The notes beneath the pieces are model-generated. The model was not told the origin of the DNA and did no database searches. It worked only from the letters and a program-made list of their open reading frames with translations. DNA of 64,000 bases from Lophium mytilinum (Eukaryota): NCBI GenBank assembly GCA_010093605.1, contig MU004184.1, positions 1,808,801 to 1,872,800 on the forward strand, read 5' to 3'. Shown piece by piece: positions 40,047-50,927 of the stretch. The translations under genes and the position numbers were made by a program. The stretch's first letter is position 1, and each line of letters opens with the position of its first letter.

Positions 40047-42020
40047 GGCTGTGGTCTTGTCGTGGCTTCGAAGTGTTCGAGGCGAGAGTGGTTTGGTCGT
40101 GGGTTCGGGTCCACCAGAGAGGTAGAATAGTGGCAGATGTATGTGGAACTGGGGGTGGTGTTAGAAAGTGAAACAGAAGCACAAGTGCCCGCTGGCCGCT
40201 TCCGCTCGGGTTACAAAAGCTGTGATACTCACTCGAAGTTACGCTTTGAAGGAGGCACGAAACCCAATCTAAAAATCGCCGAACACAACACACTGATCCC
40301 ACAACACTCTTGTCAAGTTCAAACACAAAAACACAAACCCAGCAGCAGAATCAAGAAAGAGCCCAAGAACCGCTCCAACCCGCGGCCAAGCCCATACTTA
40401 TCCCCAACCCCAATCACCCCGGCCCCAAAATACCCACCTCGTAAACCTGACCTACCTTTCCCATCCCAGCCAGAGCCTTACTCCCAAAACCCCCGTCCCT
40501 CTCCCCATCCAACCAATCACGCCATCCATCGCCCAGCAATCACCAGCGGAGATCGCACGCGTGGTTACTCACTCCAGCAACTCGCCCGTGCGAGCTGCCT
40601 TTCGCGGAAAGTAAGCGCGGCGATCAGTGTGCCTCTACCGAGCTGCCTGTTTGCGATCGCGTAGGGCGCTGTGCGGCGGCTTCGATATTGCATGGGGAGC
40701 GGGATTGGAGGGAGGGGGTCAAGCTTTTGGCTGGCGCCGCTGGGCGTAAGCGTTTCGCGGAGAGGGCGGTTTGGGGAAGGAGGCCTGCGGGTGAGTGAGG
40801 CTTTGGGTGCATTTGGCAGAGATCGGATCGCGGAAGGTGGAGTAGGCCGATGTCCCAATAGATTTCTTTGTTATATATATACGAACTTGACTGTGACCTG
40901 ACCGCACTGTATATTGCTACAGTGGAAACAGGTAAGGTAAGTAGGTAGGTTTAGATAATGGGCAGGATGTTGGTCACGTGATTTGGGACTTATCGCTATA
41001 TTCTCACGTCAAACACAATTTGAAGGCAGCTGGAATGATAGGCTCAATTTACGAAAGTACTGTGCCTAAAATTAGCGACTGCTTAACTTGTAGAGCTCTC
41101 ACGAGGTTCCCGTATAGATTAGCTCTATGGAGCTAAGATATACGACTAAGGAGGTTTTATGATCTGGTGCATGTAAATATGAGTGCTAAGTGAGTGTAAT
41201 AGTAGGACCAAGTATCATACCAATCTACAGTTAAAGCAAATTTGCATCGCAACAGCACCATACTCTTTCAACAATGCTCCGTACTAGATGGAGCCTCTAG
41301 CACGCACACGCTTACGAAGTACCCGAGGCCGAGGCTATGCTCTTAGCATGGGGAGAAAAGCCTGTATAAATTGGCATCACCAAAATTTGTTTTCAGAGGG
41401 TACTTAACAGGAGCCTGCTTTCTGTAAACAATTTTCGAGCGAACTTCCCCTCAGATCAAGCCGGTCCGCCTCTTTACGCCCAACGGTGTTTTTCTGTCGG
41501 AAATAGAATAACCACGGATCGTGTCGCTATGAAATCGCATCAGATCAGCGCCATCTTCAGAGTCCTCCTTGGTCCTCCTGGGATACTAGCTGCGTCTCCT
41601 CTTCATTCCCAATCCTCTCCAACGATACGAAGATCGGGCAGAACAGTAGCAATGACCAGACGAATCAAGTCAAGGGCAATGTCCCAGAAACTACCGTCTG
41701 ACTCTTTAAGTGGTTCTAGTCTCCACACACCGCGTACGATTATGATACTGAAGGGTAGAAGCCAGACGAACGTCTGCTGCTCACAGGTAATGAGGTGAGA
41801 GAAAATTTACCTGCGCCCGATCTCGAGGTTCGATATTGCCAAGCGGTGCAATGCTGCGCCAGGCCAGCTCAGCCTCACAGGAGGCATATCCAAGATTTCT
41901 CGGCCCCCATATCAAGCCAAGAGCCCTGCAGATCGACTTGCGAACATCGTCGACGTCCAGCCTAGGCCGTGCTGGAGCGGAGCCTACTCATCGATAGCTT
42001 TGTCTTATATATAGGTCAAG

Positions 42021-45000
42021 ATGACCTCGGACGTCACGGCCCGCGCGAAAGCGGCAGATACGATTACACCTGGCAAGGACATCTGCCTGCTTGCGCTCGA
42101 TGGCGGCGGTGTGCGCGGCCTCTCCGCGCTTCACATCCTCAAGCAGCTCATGGAGCTGGTAGACCCAGAAAACCCACCAAAACCATGCGACTACTTCGAC
42201 CTTATCGGAGGCACCTCAACGGGAGGCCTCATCGCCATCATGTTGGGTCGCCTGCACATGAACGTGGACGAATGCATCACCGAGTACAAGAAGCTCTCAA
42301 CGAGAGTTTTCACGAAGATACACCACCGAATAAATTGGAAGGGAGATGTGCAGGGACGGTTTGATCATGAAGCTCTCGTGCTCGGTGTGCAAGAGCTTCT
42401 TGTGTCGAGAGGGTTGGACAAAGATGTACTGCTTAAAGATGCAGCGGGAGCCTCTGGCTGCAAGACGTAAGTTGCCTGTTTGCACTATTGCTCAACCTGG
42501 TTTAGTCGTCGCTGATACTGAATACTCCAAACACAGCTTCGTCTGTGCTACAAGTGAACTGACAGGCGACACCGTCATCCTGTCGAGTTACTTTTCAAGA
42601 AGGAGAGGTACCTCGCTATTGAACGTAGCCAAGGTGTGGGAAGCCTCGAGAGCTACTTCTGCAGCTAGCTCCTTCTTCGATTCCATTCAGATTGATAGCG
42701 AGGGTTTTGTGGATGGCGCTAGTGGTGCCAACAATCCTATCGACGAGATTTGGTCGGAGGCTCGAGACATCTGGCGTGAAAGCAGTGACTGGAGACTAGA
42801 AGATAATCTCAGATGTCTCGTATCCATTGGGACTGGAGTACCTACGCTGAAGCCTTTTGGGAAAGACGCAATCAAGATTGGGAAGTCCTTGGTCTCCATC
42901 GCTCTGGATACGGAACGCAGACATAACACGTTCCAGAAGCATCATTCTAGCTTATTCCGAGAGAATCGCGGTTTTCGCTTTAATGTCATCCGCGGCTTGG
43001 AAGACATTGGGCTGGAAGAAGCGGACAAGCAAGGAGATATCCTTGCCGCGACACGGAGATATACGCAGTCTGAGGACATCTATGATCGGATGGAGGCATG
43101 TGCGCAGGCTCTGCATGACAGAAAATGTGCGTCTACCGCTTGATATTTCGAGAAGTTCTACCTTCGACCGTGGACGATAACGAATCATGTTTTTCGTTCC
43201 TGCAAGCTAATTAGTCTTTCATAATGTTTAGGGTTTTGGCAGACCGTTCAAGAAGTTTACTCGAAGGACAAGCAATATGATTTGTCGTACTCTTTTTCCG
43301 ATGACTCGCCTCTTCGTGAGCAATACTTCATGCCATATTGCAATACCTCTAGTTTCCGAGCATGGTGCGAGAACAAGGCAACAGGATTACGATGCGAACC
43401 GCCACCAAATGCACCGTGGCCTACCCGCTCTCTTGCTGCATTCATCCTGGATCAACTGCGCGCTATAAAGCCTCGATCTTTTTTGAACACAACAGAAGAC
43501 GTAAATGTCCTAGTCGCACGTTGGGATTCGTCAGCGGATGGCAGCCTCAAAGATCTGCACCAGGTCTGGCTCTCTTTGCTCGGCCAGACTTTGAAGCTGA
43601 TTCTAGATCGATATTTGAACGGCAATACACTAGAACACGAGCTTGAACACACTGCCCGAAATTTGCTCCCAATTGCCGCCTGTCAGCAGTTCTATGTAGC
43701 CAGAAAATATGGTCAGCAACGTGTTCAATCCGGCCAGCTTCTAGCGACCTTGAAAAGCATTCTACTGGACAATGACGAACCAGTCGTCATGGTGCTATTA
43801 GGGAGTGTAAAAACAGAGCATTGGATGAACGTAATAGGGTCACTTGCCGCAAACTCTACGACAAGACATATCAAAATCCTCCTCTGTGGCGAAGTGAGCG
43901 ATTTGGGATCACCGAATTTCCGGCACTTCGAATCGATCGACGCGAAAACTGAGTATAAAGGTATTTTGGCCGGATGATAGACTATTTGCTTACTGACAAA
44001 TTCGCAGAGTGTATACAGTCGCTCTGCTTAGATGGTTATCGCGATCGTCGGGATGAAGTAGCGATCCGAGAACCAGAAACCAATCAGTGGATCTGGAATC
44101 ATCCTTCATTCCAGGCATGGGCTTCGTCCAAGACTGGCGTACTCTGTATTCTAGGAAAACCCGGCAGCGGCAAATCCGTCTTGGCTAAGACAATTCAAGA
44201 GAATGAGGTTGCTAAATCCACGGTTTCGAGCTATTGGTTCTACAGTAAACGGAAAGGTGAAAAATACACCAGCCACGCTTCTCTCATCCAGACAGTTCTC
44301 TGCCAGATATTGGAGTCAAATTCAAAATATCTTCCCTACTATTACGACTCGTATCGTAGGAGGTACCCAGAACGAAGCATTTTGACTATAGAAGACATGA
44401 TATGTGTTCTGAAAAAGATCGCTGAAGCTGGAGAAAGCATATTCTGCCTGATCGACGCCCTTGATGAGGCAGATGACGATACGATTTTGCATACGATCGG
44501 CGACCTTGTTTTTCACACTCCGAACTCTCGGATGAAATTCATCATCTTGAGCCGTCCTTTGCCTTGTCTCGAGCAAAAGCATTGGCTAGATTACAGTGTT
44601 GTCCTCCAAAGGGAGAATGAACCAGATGTCCAGAGAATCATCGACGCGGGACTGAAGCGCCTCCAAGAAGCCATGCATTCTCTTGATAGCGACGAGGATA
44701 CGGACGGGGAGGACGATGACTCGCCATCTATTCGGCGTGGGCCTTTGAGGACTAAATCAAGTCCTATGCACAAGACGTCTCAACGGCGCATAAAAGCTCG
44801 ACATCCAGAACAGACCGACATGACGACAATTCGAGAAGCCTTACTCCTCCGCTCCGACGGTGTGATTCTTTGGGTCGCCCTATGTATTGAAGAACTCCTT
44901 AAGCTAGTCAGAAGCCCATTATTCAGAACCCACCAGTTGAAAGTCAAGATCAACAGCCTGCCGGCCGACATGACCGATTTCTATTCTCAGATTGTGCACG

Positions 45001-48000
45001 ACTTACAGAACGCACTGAGCGAGGATGACCTGGCGGTAAGTCGACAAGCCTTGATGTGGGTCGCTGGGGCAAGTGAGCTAGGAACATTTCATTTGCAGGA
45101 GCTCTGGGACGCTCTTGCAGTCTCGGCGCCGCCCACAGGACCCATACCGGAGGGAGATGATCCTATCGTCTTCAACAGAATCCAAGTAAGAACTTGGAAT
45201 CAATTTCGCCGTACACTCCAGAAATTGTGCGGGCCCTTTATCGAAGTCTTGCCAAGCGAGTCAGATGGACATTCTCAGAGTGCACCGAGAAAAGAGCATG
45301 CCGGTCCAGAGTCCATCGTCCAATTGATGCATCAAACGAGTAAGGACTTCTTGGGAAACCGCGATGACGCAGGTCCATTGCATTTCACCAGGGAGGCCGC
45401 AAGAGCGTTTGTTATTGATGGTATAATCCGCTATTTGATCACATCCCACACCTACGTACCAGAAATCCAGTCCTCGCCCTCGCCCGACTGGATATTCCAA
45501 TGGGTAAAGTCCGTTGATAATCTTACCGCGTACTTGGACGATAGGAAAATGCTCCATTTTGCTCTTGCGGTCTCTAAAAGCGAGCAACTGGTGGTGGACG
45601 TAACTACGGCGATCGCGCGAGCATGTCTACTTCCAAAAATGCAGATCCACGATGCCAACGTCCAACTGCATGATAAAGCTTTCGATGAAATCCCCCAGAA
45701 GCTCATGGGTTTTATCGGGGCAGAGTCCGCGCTTGTTGGTAGATTGTTTTATAACGCAGTCACTTATGGTCTTTCAAATGCCGTCGTCAATCTACTAGAC
45801 ATGTCCATGCTAATCGAAACTTGGTGGCCTCAATTCGAAGACAGTGTGCTCAACGCTGCATATTTGGCTGCCTTGGATCACAACATGAACGAACTAGGGG
45901 ATCTTTTATGGACTGATGCTAGAAAGGAAAAGTATAACGTTTTTTCACTCCCTCCGAAGATACGAGCACAAGCCTCTTCTCTAGGTGAAATCTCTGGGGA
46001 CGAAGATGACGTCGAAGTAGCGATATCACGGATCATCAGCCGCTGGCAATTATTGGAACGGCGTGGCACTATTGGCACTCTTGGGGTTTGCGCGCTTGAT
46101 TCCAAGGCTCGAAGCAAACCAATCAGTAGACTCCTAGAGCAAATCAGCCAAAATGCTGAGTTCGACATCATAATGTTCGGGGATAAAAACATTCTGGACG
46201 AGCCAGTGGAGAATTGGCCGCCCTGCGACTTCCTCATCTCGTTCTTCTCGGGAGGCTTTCCCCTTCAAAAGGCCATTGACTACGTAACGCTGCGAAAGCC
46301 ACACTGTGTGAACGATCTACACATGCAGATGGCTCTCCGGGATAGACGAGTGACCCTTGCATTTCTCGATGAAATAGGTGTACCTACCATTGAGCGAGTT
46401 GAAGTGAACCGAGATGGGGATTTTGCGATGCCTTACGCAGTCCTTATCCGGCGAGTGAACTCGGGTTCCGGACTTGTTACACTCGAAGAAGACGGTGATG
46501 TTCTCGTCGTTGGCGTAAAACGACTAAGAAAGCCCTTTGTGGAAAAACCAGTAGACTCTGATGACCACAATATCTACATATACTTTTCGAATGATCAGGG
46601 CGGAGGAGGAAGAAGGCTTTTCCGAAAGACTAACAACAAGAGTTCAGAGGTAGATGAAACTCTCCATGTCCCCCGAGCCATTACGGAACCTGAAAGCAGC
46701 TACATATATGAGAAATTCTTAGAAGCCGAAAATGCGGAGGACGTCAAAGCATATACCGCCGGTGAATTTTATTGTCGTGCAGAGACAAGGAAGGCTCCAA
46801 TAGTCGATGGCGTTGTCAAGCGTAATACTCACGGAAAGGAGATTCGCTACATCACAAGTTTATCCCGCGATGAAACTAGGATGGCGTCCAAAATTGTACA
46901 AGGCTTCGGCCAGACAGTCTGTGGTTTTGGCATTATCCGTTCGAATGGTCAGAGCTACGTCCACAGCGTTAGTGGTTGGAGCTTGGTGAAGGACAATGCA
47001 GAGTATTCGAAAAATTGCGCCGCCGTCTTACGACAGTTGTTCATCGATGAAACCAGGAATCGTGAATTACCCCGAGGTCTGGCCAAAACTTTTATATCCA
47101 GGAACGTACAATCTAGGTCCGTTCAGGCTTCATTTAATAAAAAATTGGAGTGGGACCTGCCAGAGTTGAGTACCGCCCCCAAAGGCCATGAATACAACGA
47201 CCTATATCCTATTCAGCTCCGCCGTCACGAATCAAGGACGCTACCCGGAATTTCGAAACACTTCGCTCCGTCATCATTGCGCAGTCCAGTAACAGGGTCT
47301 GGAGGATCAAAACCTTCAAGTCTACCCTCGTCCCGCGACATTAAGTATGGACATAATTCAGGGTTGTCCTCCAGTGGTACCTCTGATAAGAAATCACCGA
47401 TGGCGTGGAAGTTAAAGGGGATCGTTGCAGTTCACAGCCATGGAGACAGCACCCCTAAACAAGATCTCGAGTTCACTTTTCACACAGACCCATTCATTGA
47501 CTTACTCGAAGGCCATGGAAATGAAGTGACGTTGACAAAACAGTCTGCCATCACGCGCCTACAATCAGTCGCAGACTCAGCGCTCCATGTTGCTGCTGAA
47601 AATGCCGATGATTTGAGAAAGCTCAATACCGCGCTGCAGAAGACAGTCAAAGAAGTCAAACTGTCAACCAAACCAACCGATTTTGGATCACCTCCTGTTC
47701 CTGAACAAGTTAATTTGGTTATACATCTTGGAAATGACCCCACTCATGCACTCATTTATCAAACACGAGAGCTAGCAGAAAACTTCCGGCGCGAGTTCCT
47801 TCTTATGAACGCGGAGCTTTTGGGTGACTTGCATGTTTTCTGCTCTTCAGAGGCAGCAGCATCGTATACCGCACATATATTTACCGCGAGGTTGTTAGGC
47901 TTCAATGATATTCCTTCGGACTTCATCCAGGAACGAAATGACCTCCTCGGCGATTCTTTAGATGCCACAGGTCAGCTAGAAACGGCTCAAAAGCAACTCA

Positions 48001-49089
48001 ATCAGCTCTTGAGAGAAGAGATGAAACCCTCCGCTCAATCTGTGTGGCCTTTGGATATGCCAGAACCCTCAGTTGTTGGCAAGCGTCTCCACCAATCGAT
48101 TATAGCCAACAGAACGACAGTGCTGCTTAACTTTTCGAAGTTGAATTCGGCAAATATCAACCTTGTTCAATCCCGATGGTGCTCAGGACAAGATCCGTAC
48201 CTCTTTATGGATCGCTGGGAGAAGCTCCTTGCCAGAATTTGCGGCGCCCCCAGAATTGACCCAGCTCAAATCGTTGAACTTTATAACAGTCTCAAGTTTG
48301 ATGCTGTTCACAACCGAGAATTTCTCGAGTGGTGCTTTACACCGACTGATCCAACAAGCAGCGACAGCCGCGAAGACACCATGGCCAACTACTCCACCCT
48401 CCACTCACGAATTCCAGCTCCCGCGCAACACCAAGACAACTCACTGAAACGACTTCATGAGCTGTGGCATCTTTGTAAAACTATGTTCGATTACATATAC
48501 CCACTGAAATACGGCACTACGAGTGGCGACAAGCTAGAGATTGGTCTTCTGTACTCCCTACCACTGCTACAAGAAGTTGTCCAAGATCTGGAGGAGATGC
48601 AGGCATCTGACGACTCAAAATCCTTCTTTTATTTCACAAACAATTCCCACATGTACACTCTTCTCAATTGCATTCTTGAGGGTACTTTGAAGTCAAAGAT
48701 GGCTACAAATCAAATCCCCACGCTTGATTGTCTATCCAGCATGTGTTTTGAACTCTACGAGAGGCACTCTTCCAATTCAAGAGAATTTGAATACAGCCTG
48801 AAGATCACCCTAAGTCCAGGTTGCCACGCCTATGACCCTCTAAATACGTAAGCATAGCATCCAGCTCAACTTGATACGATACTGATTCCTCGTAGTGTGG
48901 TTGATTCCCATCATGCAATCTTCAGTGCACCCCGAAGGGACTTGACAGGGCACATCGACTGGAAAGAAGCAATAGAAACGCTTCGTGTTTCAATCCAAAG
49001 GTACGTCTAATCAAGCACGGTCTCGGTACTAAAAGGTCTCAAGCTAATATCTATTTAGAATGAAGCTGCCTAAGTCGTTCATGACCTAG
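42021..49089 (+). CDS. NLR-like protein: patatin phospholipase - degenerate NACHT - NACHT - helical region - Vip1/Asp1 (PPIP5K) pseudokinase/pseudophosphatase; ~2246 aa
   Basis: Exons 42021-42466, 42537-43126, 43232-43960, 44008-48847, 48896-49000, 49059-49089. All introns are GT-AG with branch sites, and the coding total of 6741 nt is in frame. Patatin DGGGVR, GTSTG, DGA. NACHT GKPGSGKS (44154-44177) and IDALDE. PPIP5K GVCALDSKARSKP...WPPCDFLISFFSGGFPL...RNTHGKEIRY...LSPGCH...KLPKSF. Confidence 0.9.
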
Positions 49090-49473
49090 TCGGAGCCAGC
49101 ATTTGGCGCCTCGCCTCATCGTTTGCCTCACATTTCTTCTGCTTGACTCAGCGAACAAGTCCTGAATTCTAAGCCAGACTTAGAGTGGTGTACACGCCTC
49201 ATCTCACCCTCGCGGAACGCTCACGTTGACTTTCCCCTTTCAAATCCTTATAGGACTCATCCCAAACTACTCGCCGGTGCTATCAACCTTCGTCTCTTCG
49301 CATTCAATGCTTGCTCAATTCCCAGGCAAACCGAGCCTAGACTCAGGCTGGCAGATTGCTGGAATGGGAAAGCTGGAAAGTAAAAAGAGTGCTACACACG
49401 GACTGCATGAGCTACCATCATTGATACTGGTCGTGAACCGTCGAACGATATTCAATAATCAGAAAGTAGCTAT

Positions 49474-50342
49474 TTACAATTTCTGAGAGCTGAACATGCG
49501 AAGGACAGCGTTCATAACGAGGACTATCGCGCTCTCGAACAGGTAGATTCTAATATGATTAACGTGAAAGAAGAGTAACGGTAGTATGAGAACTGATCCG
49601 ATAAGGTGAATCTTATAAAACCACCAGTAATCTCTGCGACGGAAGAGTCCAGTGGAAGTAACTCCAAGAGTGAAAAGAATAGCAGCGCTGATTAAAGCAA
49701 CTACGATGTTCGAATGCCGAATACTTGTCCAAAACATGTCTATTTGCACAAAGAAGATGCTGTAGAGTGATATGTGGATAGCGAAGAAGGCAATGATAAT
49801 CTTTCCAGTGACCTTATGTACCGACATATTCAGTGCGTAGGATCTCTTTGATAGGAGCTGAAGAGGTGAATATGGATGCGGCATAGCGAGGAGGTAGTGC
49901 ATCGGTAATTGGGAGGCTGCGATGAGACCAAATCGCTTAGTGAGGTGCAAGTAATCTATGCTTGTCAGTGTTTAGTCTCTAATCTAGGATAGGAGCTTAT
50001 GGTACCAGGCGCGGTCTCGGCGATGCACAAGAATCCCAGCCATGAAGTCCAGGCTAGTCCGAATATCCATTGTCCATACGTGCCATATCCCCTGCCCACA
50101 TTTACGCCCAATTTGAAGTATAGGCTTCTTGCAATACGAGCCAGAACGGCTACGCTGCCTTTCTGAGATTTTCCCGCGAGCTTGCTGACTGGGATCGAAG
50201 CAGCGAAATTGCAGAACAGGATGATTAGGTGAACTATAAGTTGCGAGATCTGTGCTATATTCGCGTACTGATCTAATCGAATACGTCGCTGCACGATGAG
50301 CTCAGGCGTTCTTGCAAGAAATTCGTACACAAGATAGCTCAT
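49474..50342 (-). CDS. Ferric-reductase-like transmembrane (heme b) domain only; no FAD/NADPH domains
   Basis: Two exons (intron ~50005-49958). DYLHLTKRFGLIAASQLPMHYLLA; His pairs VHKVTG...IHISLY and KIHLIG...FFHVNH; stop directly after the last TM helix. Confidence 0.75.
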
Positions 50343-50927
50343 GGTGATAGGCTTTGTTGTTTATTTCGTGAACAAGCGTGAAATGTGGGAGGTAGGAGAG
50401 CAATACTACAGGCAACATGTCTTGTATTTATACTAGTATCGAGCTCGTATACTGTAGACTCATTAATAATGCTTTGGTTTATACTGCCTTATTTCCGAGA
50501 ACTGTAATCACAATCTCGCGGATACCTCTATTAAGCTGCGTTGGGTTGAAGGTTAGACGAGGAATTACGGCACCAGTCCATATCTGGTATGGGATTGACC
50601 TTACGAGTTCTTGAGCCCCACAAGCCGCGCGGGAAGGTCCACCAAGCTTTAGGCCCGCGCGCAATGTCGCACTCTATCGTGCATGTAACCCGCAATGGGA
50701 AGTTTCCTCTTTCCCGCGCGGAAGACGTTTGTAATCAGTATCCTCTTGTCTAAAGAAGAGGAGGTCGGGCAGCTAGGTTATTCGCTCTGATAGGAGGGAT
50801 TTTAGACGGACTTCTTTTAATCTTCACGCTGGTTCATCTTGAGCAGAATAAGTCTTCATATTCTGCATCGATTGCTGGCCGCATACTAACTAGTGCTGCA
50901 TGGCGCACTACCACGGTGGTAGTCCAT

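Follow-up and report, generated by a model that had tools for sequence, protein, structure and literature searches.

A patatin-NACHT protein of Lophium mytilinum ending in a Vip1-like module with degenerate active sites: a candidate integrated-domain receptor

What is a whole inositol-pyrophosphate (PP-InsP) enzyme doing at the end of a fungal NOD-like receptor (NLR)? The question is raised by a gene of the wood-inhabiting fungus Lophium mytilinum, located in a stretch of 64,000 nucleotides (nt) of contig MU004184.1 (assembly GCA_010093605.1, positions 1,808,801 to 1,872,800), hereafter the window, in whose own numbering all positions are given. The gene encodes a protein of 2246 amino acids (aa) with, in this order, a patatin domain, a NACHT domain, a predicted winged-helix/helical region, and the kinase and phosphatase domains of a Vip1/Asp1-type enzyme (PPIP5K), distributed over six exons. 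Our results suggest that both active sites of the PPIP5K module are degenerate, that the module is yet constrained, and that it was added to the end of a complete receptor in a fungus that keeps an intact Vip1 elsewhere. With moderate conviction, we read the protein as an integrated-domain NLR in which a Vip1 pseudoenzyme would act as bait or sensor and fire phospholipase-driven cell death.

The coordinates, length and intron count of the initial annotation matched ours exactly: the gene spans 42021-49089 on the plus strand (as do all its features below) and has five introns. The six joined exons give 6741 nt of coding sequence, in which the sole stop is the terminal one. All five introns (70, 105, 47, 48 and 58 nt) are GT..AG with fungal-type branch sites, and the base composition over the gene region is not unusual. 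Exon 1 (42021..42466) carries the ATG and the first part of the patatin domain, with the oxyanion motif DGGGVRG at residues 27-33 and G-T-S66-T-G. Exon 2 (42537..43126) holds the remainder of the domain, with Asp208 in FVDGASGANNP. Intron 2 (43127..43231) is followed by exon 3 (43232..43960), a spacer between patatin and NACHT (residues 346-588) that has no Pfam family and is alignable with patatin-bearing relatives such as P0141, P0143 and P0151. Exon 4 (44008..48847, 4840 nt, residues 589-2201) runs uninterrupted from the NACHT to most of the phosphatase, within a stop-to-stop frame (43959..48851) that is open over 1630 codons in the list of open reading frames (ORF). It encodes the NACHT/NPHP3_N domain (44079..44555) with Walker A GKPGSGKS (44154-44177) and Walker B CLIDALDE (44445-44468), a post-NACHT region (44733..46067, residues 831-1275) predicted to form a winged helix and ~200 helical residues, the ATP-grasp kinase domain, now a predicted pseudokinase (46068..47057), a little conserved interdomain linker (47058..47396, residues 1606-1718) and the histidine-acid-phosphatase domain, now a predicted pseudophosphatase (47397..48847). 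Exon 5 (48896..49000) completes the phosphatase domain (…HIDWKEAIETLRVSIQ), and exon 6 (49059..49089) encodes …MKLPKSFMT followed by a TAG stop (49087-49089); VKLPKSF stands at the exon 6-equivalent place in canonical Vip1s. The junction between the NACHT and PPIP5K parts (~46066, residue 1275) therefore falls inside exon 4, as the initial annotation had stated, and the kinase and phosphatase are both present through the native-like C-terminus that it described (HIDWKEAIETLR...KLPKSF).

Pfam searches with pieces of the ORFs recovered the four families that this layout predicts, namely Patatin (2.7e-13 in exon 1 and 1.9e-6 in exon 2), NPHP3_N (2e-27), PPIP5K2_N (3.2e-34) and His_Phos_2 (9.7e-26); the Pfam NACHT model scored 21.2 bits (2.8e-4), under its own cut-off of 26.7. 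Against solved Vip1/Asp1/PPIP5K2 chains, the kinase half matched 9gr8_A at 1e-112 and the phosphatase half 9grh_A at 3.3e-94.

Expression and splicing are documented by a public run of contigs (X1) that contains 95% of the sampled words of the gene. Its type on record is 'RNA?'; because its contigs skip all five GT..AG introns at the predicted boundaries, we take it as cDNA derived from spliced RNA. Intron 1 is removed in a contig covering 41218-43127 (joint 42466>42537), and intron 2 is spliced at the joint 43126>43232. A contig of 6941 nt corresponds to 43232-49956 minus introns 3, 4 and 5 (exon 5 joints 48847>48896 and 48998>49057, cut +2), and so joins exons 3 to 6 in one sequence that spans the NACHT-PPIP5K junction. 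Patatin, NACHT and PPIP5K are thus encoded by one transcribed, spliced gene; the initial annotation had claimed a single spliceable gene, and the frame, the Pfam families and the spliced contigs agree with it. An assembly chimera was considered and rejected, since the junction is found also in this independent cDNA-type run and in a contig from a second organism.

The X1 contigs have other features of their own. Intron 2 is retained in a contig of 164 nt (43098-43261, depth 46), and retention brings in a stop at 43141-43143 that would leave a patatin-only product of ~350 aa. The contig with exons 1-2 begins at 41218, ~800 nt 5' of the ATG, as if the leader were long or the contig came from a different transcript; a separate low-depth contig has a CT..AC joint (41163>41221), which on the minus strand would read as a GT..AG intron. 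The 6.9-kb contig runs on to 49956, where it departs from the window sequence, and overlaps a convergent ferric-reductase-like gene (Pfam Ferric_reduct 7e-17; 49474-50360, minus strand). The overlap at 49090-49956 points either to 3' ends that share sequence or to two transcripts joined during assembly.

The search for the fusion in other fungi, which the initial annotation had proposed along with a phylogeny, revealed a second lineage. The best non-self match, P0002, combines NPHP3_N and PPIP5K2_N in one protein and is the sole such case among the 120 matches listed; the remaining 119 have PPIP5K2_N and His_Phos_2 without a NACHT-type family. The 90%-identity cluster of P0002 includes proteins of Cenococcum geophilum, and in another of its members, P0125 (a 1661-aa ORF), NACHT, kinase and phosphatase follow one another without interruption. 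The whole gene is present in a metagenome contig, L001, which is 93% identical to P0125 and has the exon layout of Lophium: patatin exons, a spacer exon, and an exon 4 open for 1728 codons. Between L001 and Lophium the patatin domain is 78.5% identical (residues 18-345) and the rest ~50%, so that patatin is the most conserved part of the fused protein. The flanks of L001 showed no synteny with the window, only 16 high-scoring segment pairs (HSP) of 10-28 residues. A pattern scan of metagenomes gave 437 matches, from which one locus was confirmed and no further lineages emerged.

In Cenococcum geophilum 1.58 the copy is split into two proteins, P0121, with the NACHT and the N-terminal part of the kinase (1025 aa), and P0126, with the phosphatase and an apparent unspliced insert (823 aa). 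The residues of P0121 after '...SSLH.PRA' are unlike those of P0125 and L001, and the split could go back to a frameshift in 1.58 itself or to an intron that was called wrongly.

Is the module still an enzyme? In an alignment of the fused modules with 20 canonical Vip1s from Pezizomycotina, we compared the columns that are invariant in 20/20 (Asp1 numbering being the 8e1h chain position + 29). The two domains stand in canonical order, ATP-grasp kinase and then histidine-acid-phosphatase. At the equivalents of Asp1 D321, D333 and N335, all in invariant columns, the Lophium module has D321G (46929-46931), D333S (46965-46967) and N335S (46971-46973). In Asp1, D321 and D333 bind two catalytic metals, D321A and D333A abolish kinase activity, N335A retains 45% of it, and R396 and H397 are pyrophosphatase active-site residues (PMC9239264). 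The kinase motifs CGFD, IDVNG and CHAETRK read CGFG, HSVSG and CRAETRK in Lophium; in the Cenococcum-like copies the first and the last are kept and the second is NDING, with D and N kept. The phosphatase motif RHADR is SHGDS in Lophium (Ser 47436-47438, His 47439-47441, Ser 47448-47450), and equally in P0125 and L001, while SSERR and KESH read SSEAA and NNSH in Lophium and SSERA and KRSH in the Cenococcum-like copies; the His residues of the phosphatase motifs are retained in the fused copies. The nine Asp1-scanned contacts K43, R123, H204, R223, K224, K260, R285, R293 and K341 are all retained in Lophium (9/9).

The changes extend over both domains. Among the invariant columns, 24 and 22 of 153 (kinase) and 80 and 69 of 239 (phosphatase) are changed in the two fused modules. 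When each canonical Vip1 was held out and compared with the other 19, the median number of changed columns was 1 for the kinase (at most 5) and 2 for the phosphatase (at most 11). With 24/153 kinase columns changed, the chance of losing all three metal-site residues is ~0.4%. Since the catalytic-metal aspartates of the kinase and the RHxxR arginines of the phosphatase are lost, the Lophium module is, as read from its residues, a pseudoenzyme with both active sites degenerate. The Cenococcum-like copies (P0125 and L001) share the phosphatase lesion and keep the metal triad of the kinase, from which it follows that the phosphatase would have been lost in the common ancestor and the kinase later, in the Lophium line.

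A search with a canonical Dothideomycete Vip1 gave 5032 matches, and although the Lophium protein was not named among the 120 listed, it was identified as a member of a Mytilinidion cluster: P0280 (KAF2501233.1), a Lophium mytilinum Vip1 of 1515 aa in which every catalytic motif is intact. It is on another contig than P0001, the deposited protein of the fused locus (2.85 Mb vs 2.48 Mb), and no second VIP1 was found within the window. The separate intact VIP1 that the initial annotation proposed to confirm elsewhere in the genome thus exists, and the fused copy, being by prediction catalytically dead, could hardly supply the Vip1 enzymatic function. The fused module is 40% identical to this canonical Vip1 over 894 aligned columns and 54% over 159. 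In quick maximum-likelihood trees, where the branches of the fused modules are very long, the two fused modules are sisters (Shimodaira-Hasegawa-like approximate likelihood ratio, SH-aLRT, 99 and 100) and their clade adjoins the canonical Dothideomycete Vip1s (SH-aLRT 94 and 93). Approximately unbiased (AU) tests, whose groups were chosen after seeing the tree and to which long-branch effects apply, did not reject placement with a Pleosporomycetidae-type canonical clade (p = 0.43) and rejected placement with only Mytilinidiales/Gloniaceae/Lepidopterella (p = 0.001). Most simply, these phylogenies would mean that a Dothideomycete VIP1 was duplicated once and fused once, and that the fused copy then diverged fast.

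We then asked how the module has been maintained, comparing Lophium and L001 across exon 4. Synonymous sites are saturated (proportion of synonymous differences, pS, 0.70-0.82), so that only pS and its nonsynonymous counterpart pN are given, the Jukes-Cantor-corrected dS being undefined or >2. The pN was 0.17 in the NACHT, 0.26 in the helical region, 0.22 in the pseudo-kinase (64% identity), 0.29 in the pseudo-phosphatase (54% identity) and 0.56 in the interdomain linker (24.8% identity). The two apparently dead enzyme domains are hence conserved about as well as the NLR core, which points to purifying selection. As they stayed conserved while the linker in the same exon drifted, the module was presumably kept for a non-catalytic job.

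The receptor to which the module is attached seems complete. The catalytic residues of the patatin are intact (G-T-S66-T-G and D208-G-A, read from the gene model), with S66 and D208 as the Ser-Asp dyad. Patatin is among the listed N-terminal domains of fungal NLRs (PMC12881547). Walker A and Walker B of the NACHT are also intact, and both are identical in L001. When the NACHT and 690 downstream residues were used as query, we obtained 56 matches: the Cenococcum cluster, P0001, 46 closer proteins and 8 weak, ankyrin-bearing NLRs. PPIP5K2_N is listed only in the Cenococcum cluster among them. The 46 closer relatives (890-1623 aa, 28-35% identity) have NPHP3_N/NACHT with Patatin (14), PNP_UDP (2) or DUF7791 (6), and in their Pfam listings a repeat family appears in none (0/46). 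In each of the 19 relatives that were fetched, the alignment stops at model residues 1078-1260. For P0141, P0143 and P0151, which bear patatin, one HSP covers everything between residue ~3-18 and 1190-1210; the remaining four patatin-bearing ones have two HSPs or an alignment that stops earlier.

Two short elements mark the end of the receptor. An ankyrin-like (ANK-like) element 'GLxxAxxNLL' (GLSNAVVNLL at 45768-45797 in Lophium) occurs in 14/19 relatives and both fused proteins, and a 'DVEDAI...'-type motif lies 2-72 residues before the C-terminus in 6/19 relatives, as counted with strict regular expressions; variants of the latter in P0138, P0143, P0149 and P0151 are visible by eye only. In Lophium (DDVEVAISRII, 46005-46037) and in P0125 this C-terminal motif is 15 residues ahead of the first kinase motif. 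Because the relatives align no further and the native C-terminal motif precedes the kinase, the alignments indicate that the PPIP5K module was appended at the very end of a complete, repeat-poor patatin-NACHT NLR. The initial annotation had it take the place of a repeat domain, which is not the case, as it follows the full C-terminal region including the native motif. The accompanying statement that no repeat domain is visible stands as regards Pfam, to which must be added the ~450 conserved residues, by prediction winged-helix and helical, between the NACHT and the PPIP5K. Pfam at E up to 10 returned no repeat and nothing over cut-off in residues 830-1275 and 346-588. An AlphaFold model of residues 830-1275 (predicted local distance difference test, pLDDT, 79.3; predicted template modelling score, pTM, 0.78) is helical with a small hairpin. 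Foldseek against the Protein Data Bank (PDB) gave no match for it at E up to 0.001, and a wide VIA-align comparison reached a best Z of 6.5, in the noise range for helical models. Within the same noise range (Z <=6.5), model residues 80-230 resemble the winged-helix domains of ORC/Cdc6, Apaf-1 (Z 5.9), CED-4, Avs3 and SAMD9, and residues 250-446 are weakly like short alpha-solenoids, MIF4G/HEAT-like proteins and designed helical repeats (Z <=6.1). The predicted pattern, a winged helix and then a short alpha-solenoid, is weak yet coherent.

One other member of the NACHT clade has an unusual tail. P0146 of Talaromyces proteolyticus (1554 aa), with a PNP_UDP N-terminus, carries a Zn(2)-Cys(6) domain in its C-terminal tail, past the stretch that aligns to the Lophium helical domain. 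The tails of this clade may collect other foreign domains too.

How would such a protein work? In the mechanism that we propose, the Vip1-like module would be an integrated sensing domain that mimics Vip1 and holds the NACHT switch off. A factor targeting Vip1 would bind or modify this bait, leading to nucleotide exchange and oligomerisation of the NACHT, and the clustered patatin phospholipase would attack membranes and kill the compartment, as for the patatin NLR PLP-1 of Neurospora crassa. The loss of catalysis would remove a second, unregulated source of PP-InsP turnover and keep the target's look. The whole two-domain core appears preserved while catalysis was dispensable, which is why we lean modestly towards a protein as the trigger, supplied by a microbial antagonist or by an incompatible self-variant, and away from a small-molecule ligand. 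The integrated-domain receptor suggested by the initial annotation gains from the intact VIP1, the seemingly dead yet constrained copy and the second lineage; the 'decoy' in that suggestion is one of two live mechanisms.

Several points weigh against a receptor with a Vip1 bait. We know of no effector or toxin that targets the Vip1/PPIP5K protein. Those described, from plant pathogens, degrade the InsP/PP-InsP metabolites, not the enzyme (PMC12578338). The fusion was found in two related lineages only, and the Cenococcum-like kinase may still be active, in which case catalytic death would not define the fusion. In our scheme the killing of the cell, the oligomerisation, the binding and the missing catalysis are all predictions. 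As for the gene itself, contigs are no proof of a single transcript and leave room for an extra internal start, and the deposited P0001 (KAF2499675.1, 1025 aa, 100% identical) comprises the PPIP5K part only. Contig depth, which cannot rank the parts of a gene, is ~107 over exons 1-2 vs 15.8 over exons 3-6; together with the retention of intron 2, the gap is a lead to a short patatin-only product that may dominate.

The deposited annotation amounts to two genes, an NLR and a PPIP5K-like protein of 1025 aa from an internal Met (model residue 1214), which is exactly what P0001 represents and what an internal transcription start would produce. We regard this as very unlikely, and as the least probable of the alternatives, given that no stop separates the two parts, that intron 5 is spliced, and that a second organism has the same layout. 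Neither Lophium nor L001 offers the upstream NLR gene a stop of its own, a single spliced contig bridges the junction, and P0001 (window 45882-49089) starts inside the conserved helical domain, 5' of the C-terminal motif of the clade. The end of P0001, '...SIQRYV', comes from reading on into intron 5, an intron that is removed in the RNA contigs, and the native '...MKLPKSFMT' is missing. The NACHT-side matches did not include a deposited model (886-2821 aa) that is 100% identical to the NLR part upstream. The PPIP5K-only public annotation is the result of a wrong start at an internal Met. A single gene could still be an evolutionary accident, an expressed fusion without function whose lesions are the decay of a redundant duplicate; the lost catalytic residues, the excess of changed invariant columns (24/22 of 153 and 80/69 of 239, vs medians of 1-2), the long branches and the split copy of Cenococcum geophilum 1.58 would all fit. 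Such decay would have had to spare a frame of 2246 codons in Lophium and an exon of 1728 codons in L001, as well as introns that are spliced correctly, and at saturated synonymous sites drift would have erased the 64% and 54% identity of kinase and phosphatase, the linker being at 25%. This makes an accident improbable to a marked degree, if not as much as two genes.

Two further explanations accept a function and differ as to which. The NACHT-patatin and the Vip1-like part may be a non-immune regulatory fusion in phosphate, lipid or membrane signalling, for example a scaffold that tethers the phospholipase. Most fungal NLRs have no known function (PMC13449251), the Cenococcum-like kinase may be active, and the neighbouring ORFs are ordinary metabolic or housekeeping genes (ferric reductases, a short-chain dehydrogenase/reductase, a Zn2Cys6 factor, Utp13, a methyltransferase, a major facilitator superfamily transporter, PrpD and a glycoside hydrolase family 28, GH28, enzyme), with no other NLR or het-type gene in the window. 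We still hold this to be unlikely: over its N-terminal two thirds the protein falls in a clade whose architecture resembles that of death-effector NLRs (Patatin 14/46, PNP_UDP 2/46), the patatin-NLR PLP-1 executes cell death (PMC12881547), and a signalling enzyme would be expected to keep its catalysis, which both Lophium domains seem to have lost. A possible, if doubtful, alternative is that the module guards a metabolite: the pseudo-kinase pocket would bind InsP6, 5-InsP7 or ATP, its occupancy would hold the NLR off, and the NLR would be released once PP-InsP is depleted or altered, for example under phosphate stress or through NUDIX or phytase-type enzymes that an antagonist delivers as effectors. 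The retention of all nine scanned contact residues in Lophium, with only the metal ligands lost, fits a binding pocket, although with 129/153 invariant columns retained 9/9 has a probability of ~0.2 by chance and is not significant; the Cenococcum-like pocket is entirely intact. Pathogen effectors do hydrolyse InsP6/PP-InsPs, and recognition of XopH/AvrBs7 by Bs7 needs the catalytic sites (PMC12578338). Binding of a ligand by the pocket is itself a prediction, and a kinase-pocket sensor leaves unexplained why the phosphatase, without its phosphate-binding arginines in both lineages, is yet conserved (pN 0.29). Were it true, a fungal NLR would be wired directly to a second-messenger pool, and PP-InsP signalling would be contested in fungus-microbe conflicts, as in plants.

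The reading that we prefer, a receptor with a Vip1 pseudoenzyme as bait or sensor, would be of interest because fungal NLRs are numerous and their triggers almost all unknown, and here the sequence of the Lophium receptor itself names a candidate. The hypothesis that it raises is that either Vip1 itself or the pool of inositol pyrophosphates comes under attack or surveillance in fungal conflicts. The same reading would extend the proposed fungal integrated decoys beyond Sordariales and protein kinases. The module is also a natural case of what looks like stepwise pseudoenzyme formation, phosphatase first and kinase later, and two public gene models that hid the fusion are corrected.

The architecture had been thought undescribed in the initial annotation. 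No account of a fusion of NACHT and PPIP5K was found in the literature that we searched on fungal NLR, NACHT and PPIP5K, and His_Phos, PPIP5K, PF00328 and PF18086 are absent from 17 supplementary files of PMC12258605 (one oversized file left out). This article, published in 2025, proposes that in nine Sordariales NLRs a C-terminal CHK-2-like PKinase is an integrated decoy, and has other enzyme modules in its tables. What appears to be new is thus PPIP5K as an NLR-integrated domain, putative integrated decoys in fungal NLRs being already known. The Lophium protein resembles those T-NACHT NLRs with a CHK-2/PRD-4-like PKinase in being a complete canonical NACHT NLR with an extra C-terminal domain, which comes from a conserved single-copy host enzyme by a single integration with the parent gene retained. 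It differs in holding a whole two-domain PPIP5K core (~970 residues) with both active sites degenerate, and in belonging to Dothideomycetes and to a repeat-poor patatin-NACHT clade.

Plant NLRs with integrated domains (NLR-IDs), such as those with HMA or WRKY domains, likewise have a duplicated host protein fused to the NLR and the original elsewhere in the genome, and loss of the bait's activity is common among them. The Lophium protein is from another kingdom, has a NACHT where they have an NB-ARC, and carries a phospholipase as its presumed executioner; no helper NLR is paired with it in the window, and no effector-target relationship is known for Vip1. The integrated decoy model for plant NLR-IDs is that of Cesari et al. 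2014 (cited in PMC12258605). Closer to our protein in its effector, PLP-1 (patatin, NB-ARC and tetratricopeptide repeats) monitors the SNARE SEC-9 and has been proposed to act by a guard-type logic; it self-associates as well as binding its partner, and the death that it causes requires patatin activity and the P-loop (PMC12881547). Compared by description only, both have an N-terminal patatin phospholipase on a STAND ATPase, and Lophium differs in its NACHT/NPHP3_N, in having no Pfam repeats and in carrying the presumed watched protein in cis. With canonical Vip1/Asp1/PPIP5K the fused module shares both domains, their order, the linker and the C-terminal KLPKSF; unlike them, it is without the N-terminal disordered region and the C-terminal tail, and the metal ligands and RHxxR arginines are replaced. 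Finally, the unfused patatin-NACHT relatives (P0141 of Periconia digitata, 1238 aa, P0151 and P0143; 27-35% identity in the NACHT/helical HSP) have the same patatin, spacer, NACHT, helical region and ANK-like element, and part of them the C-terminal motif, but short or unrelated tails stand where Lophium and Cenococcum have PPIP5K.

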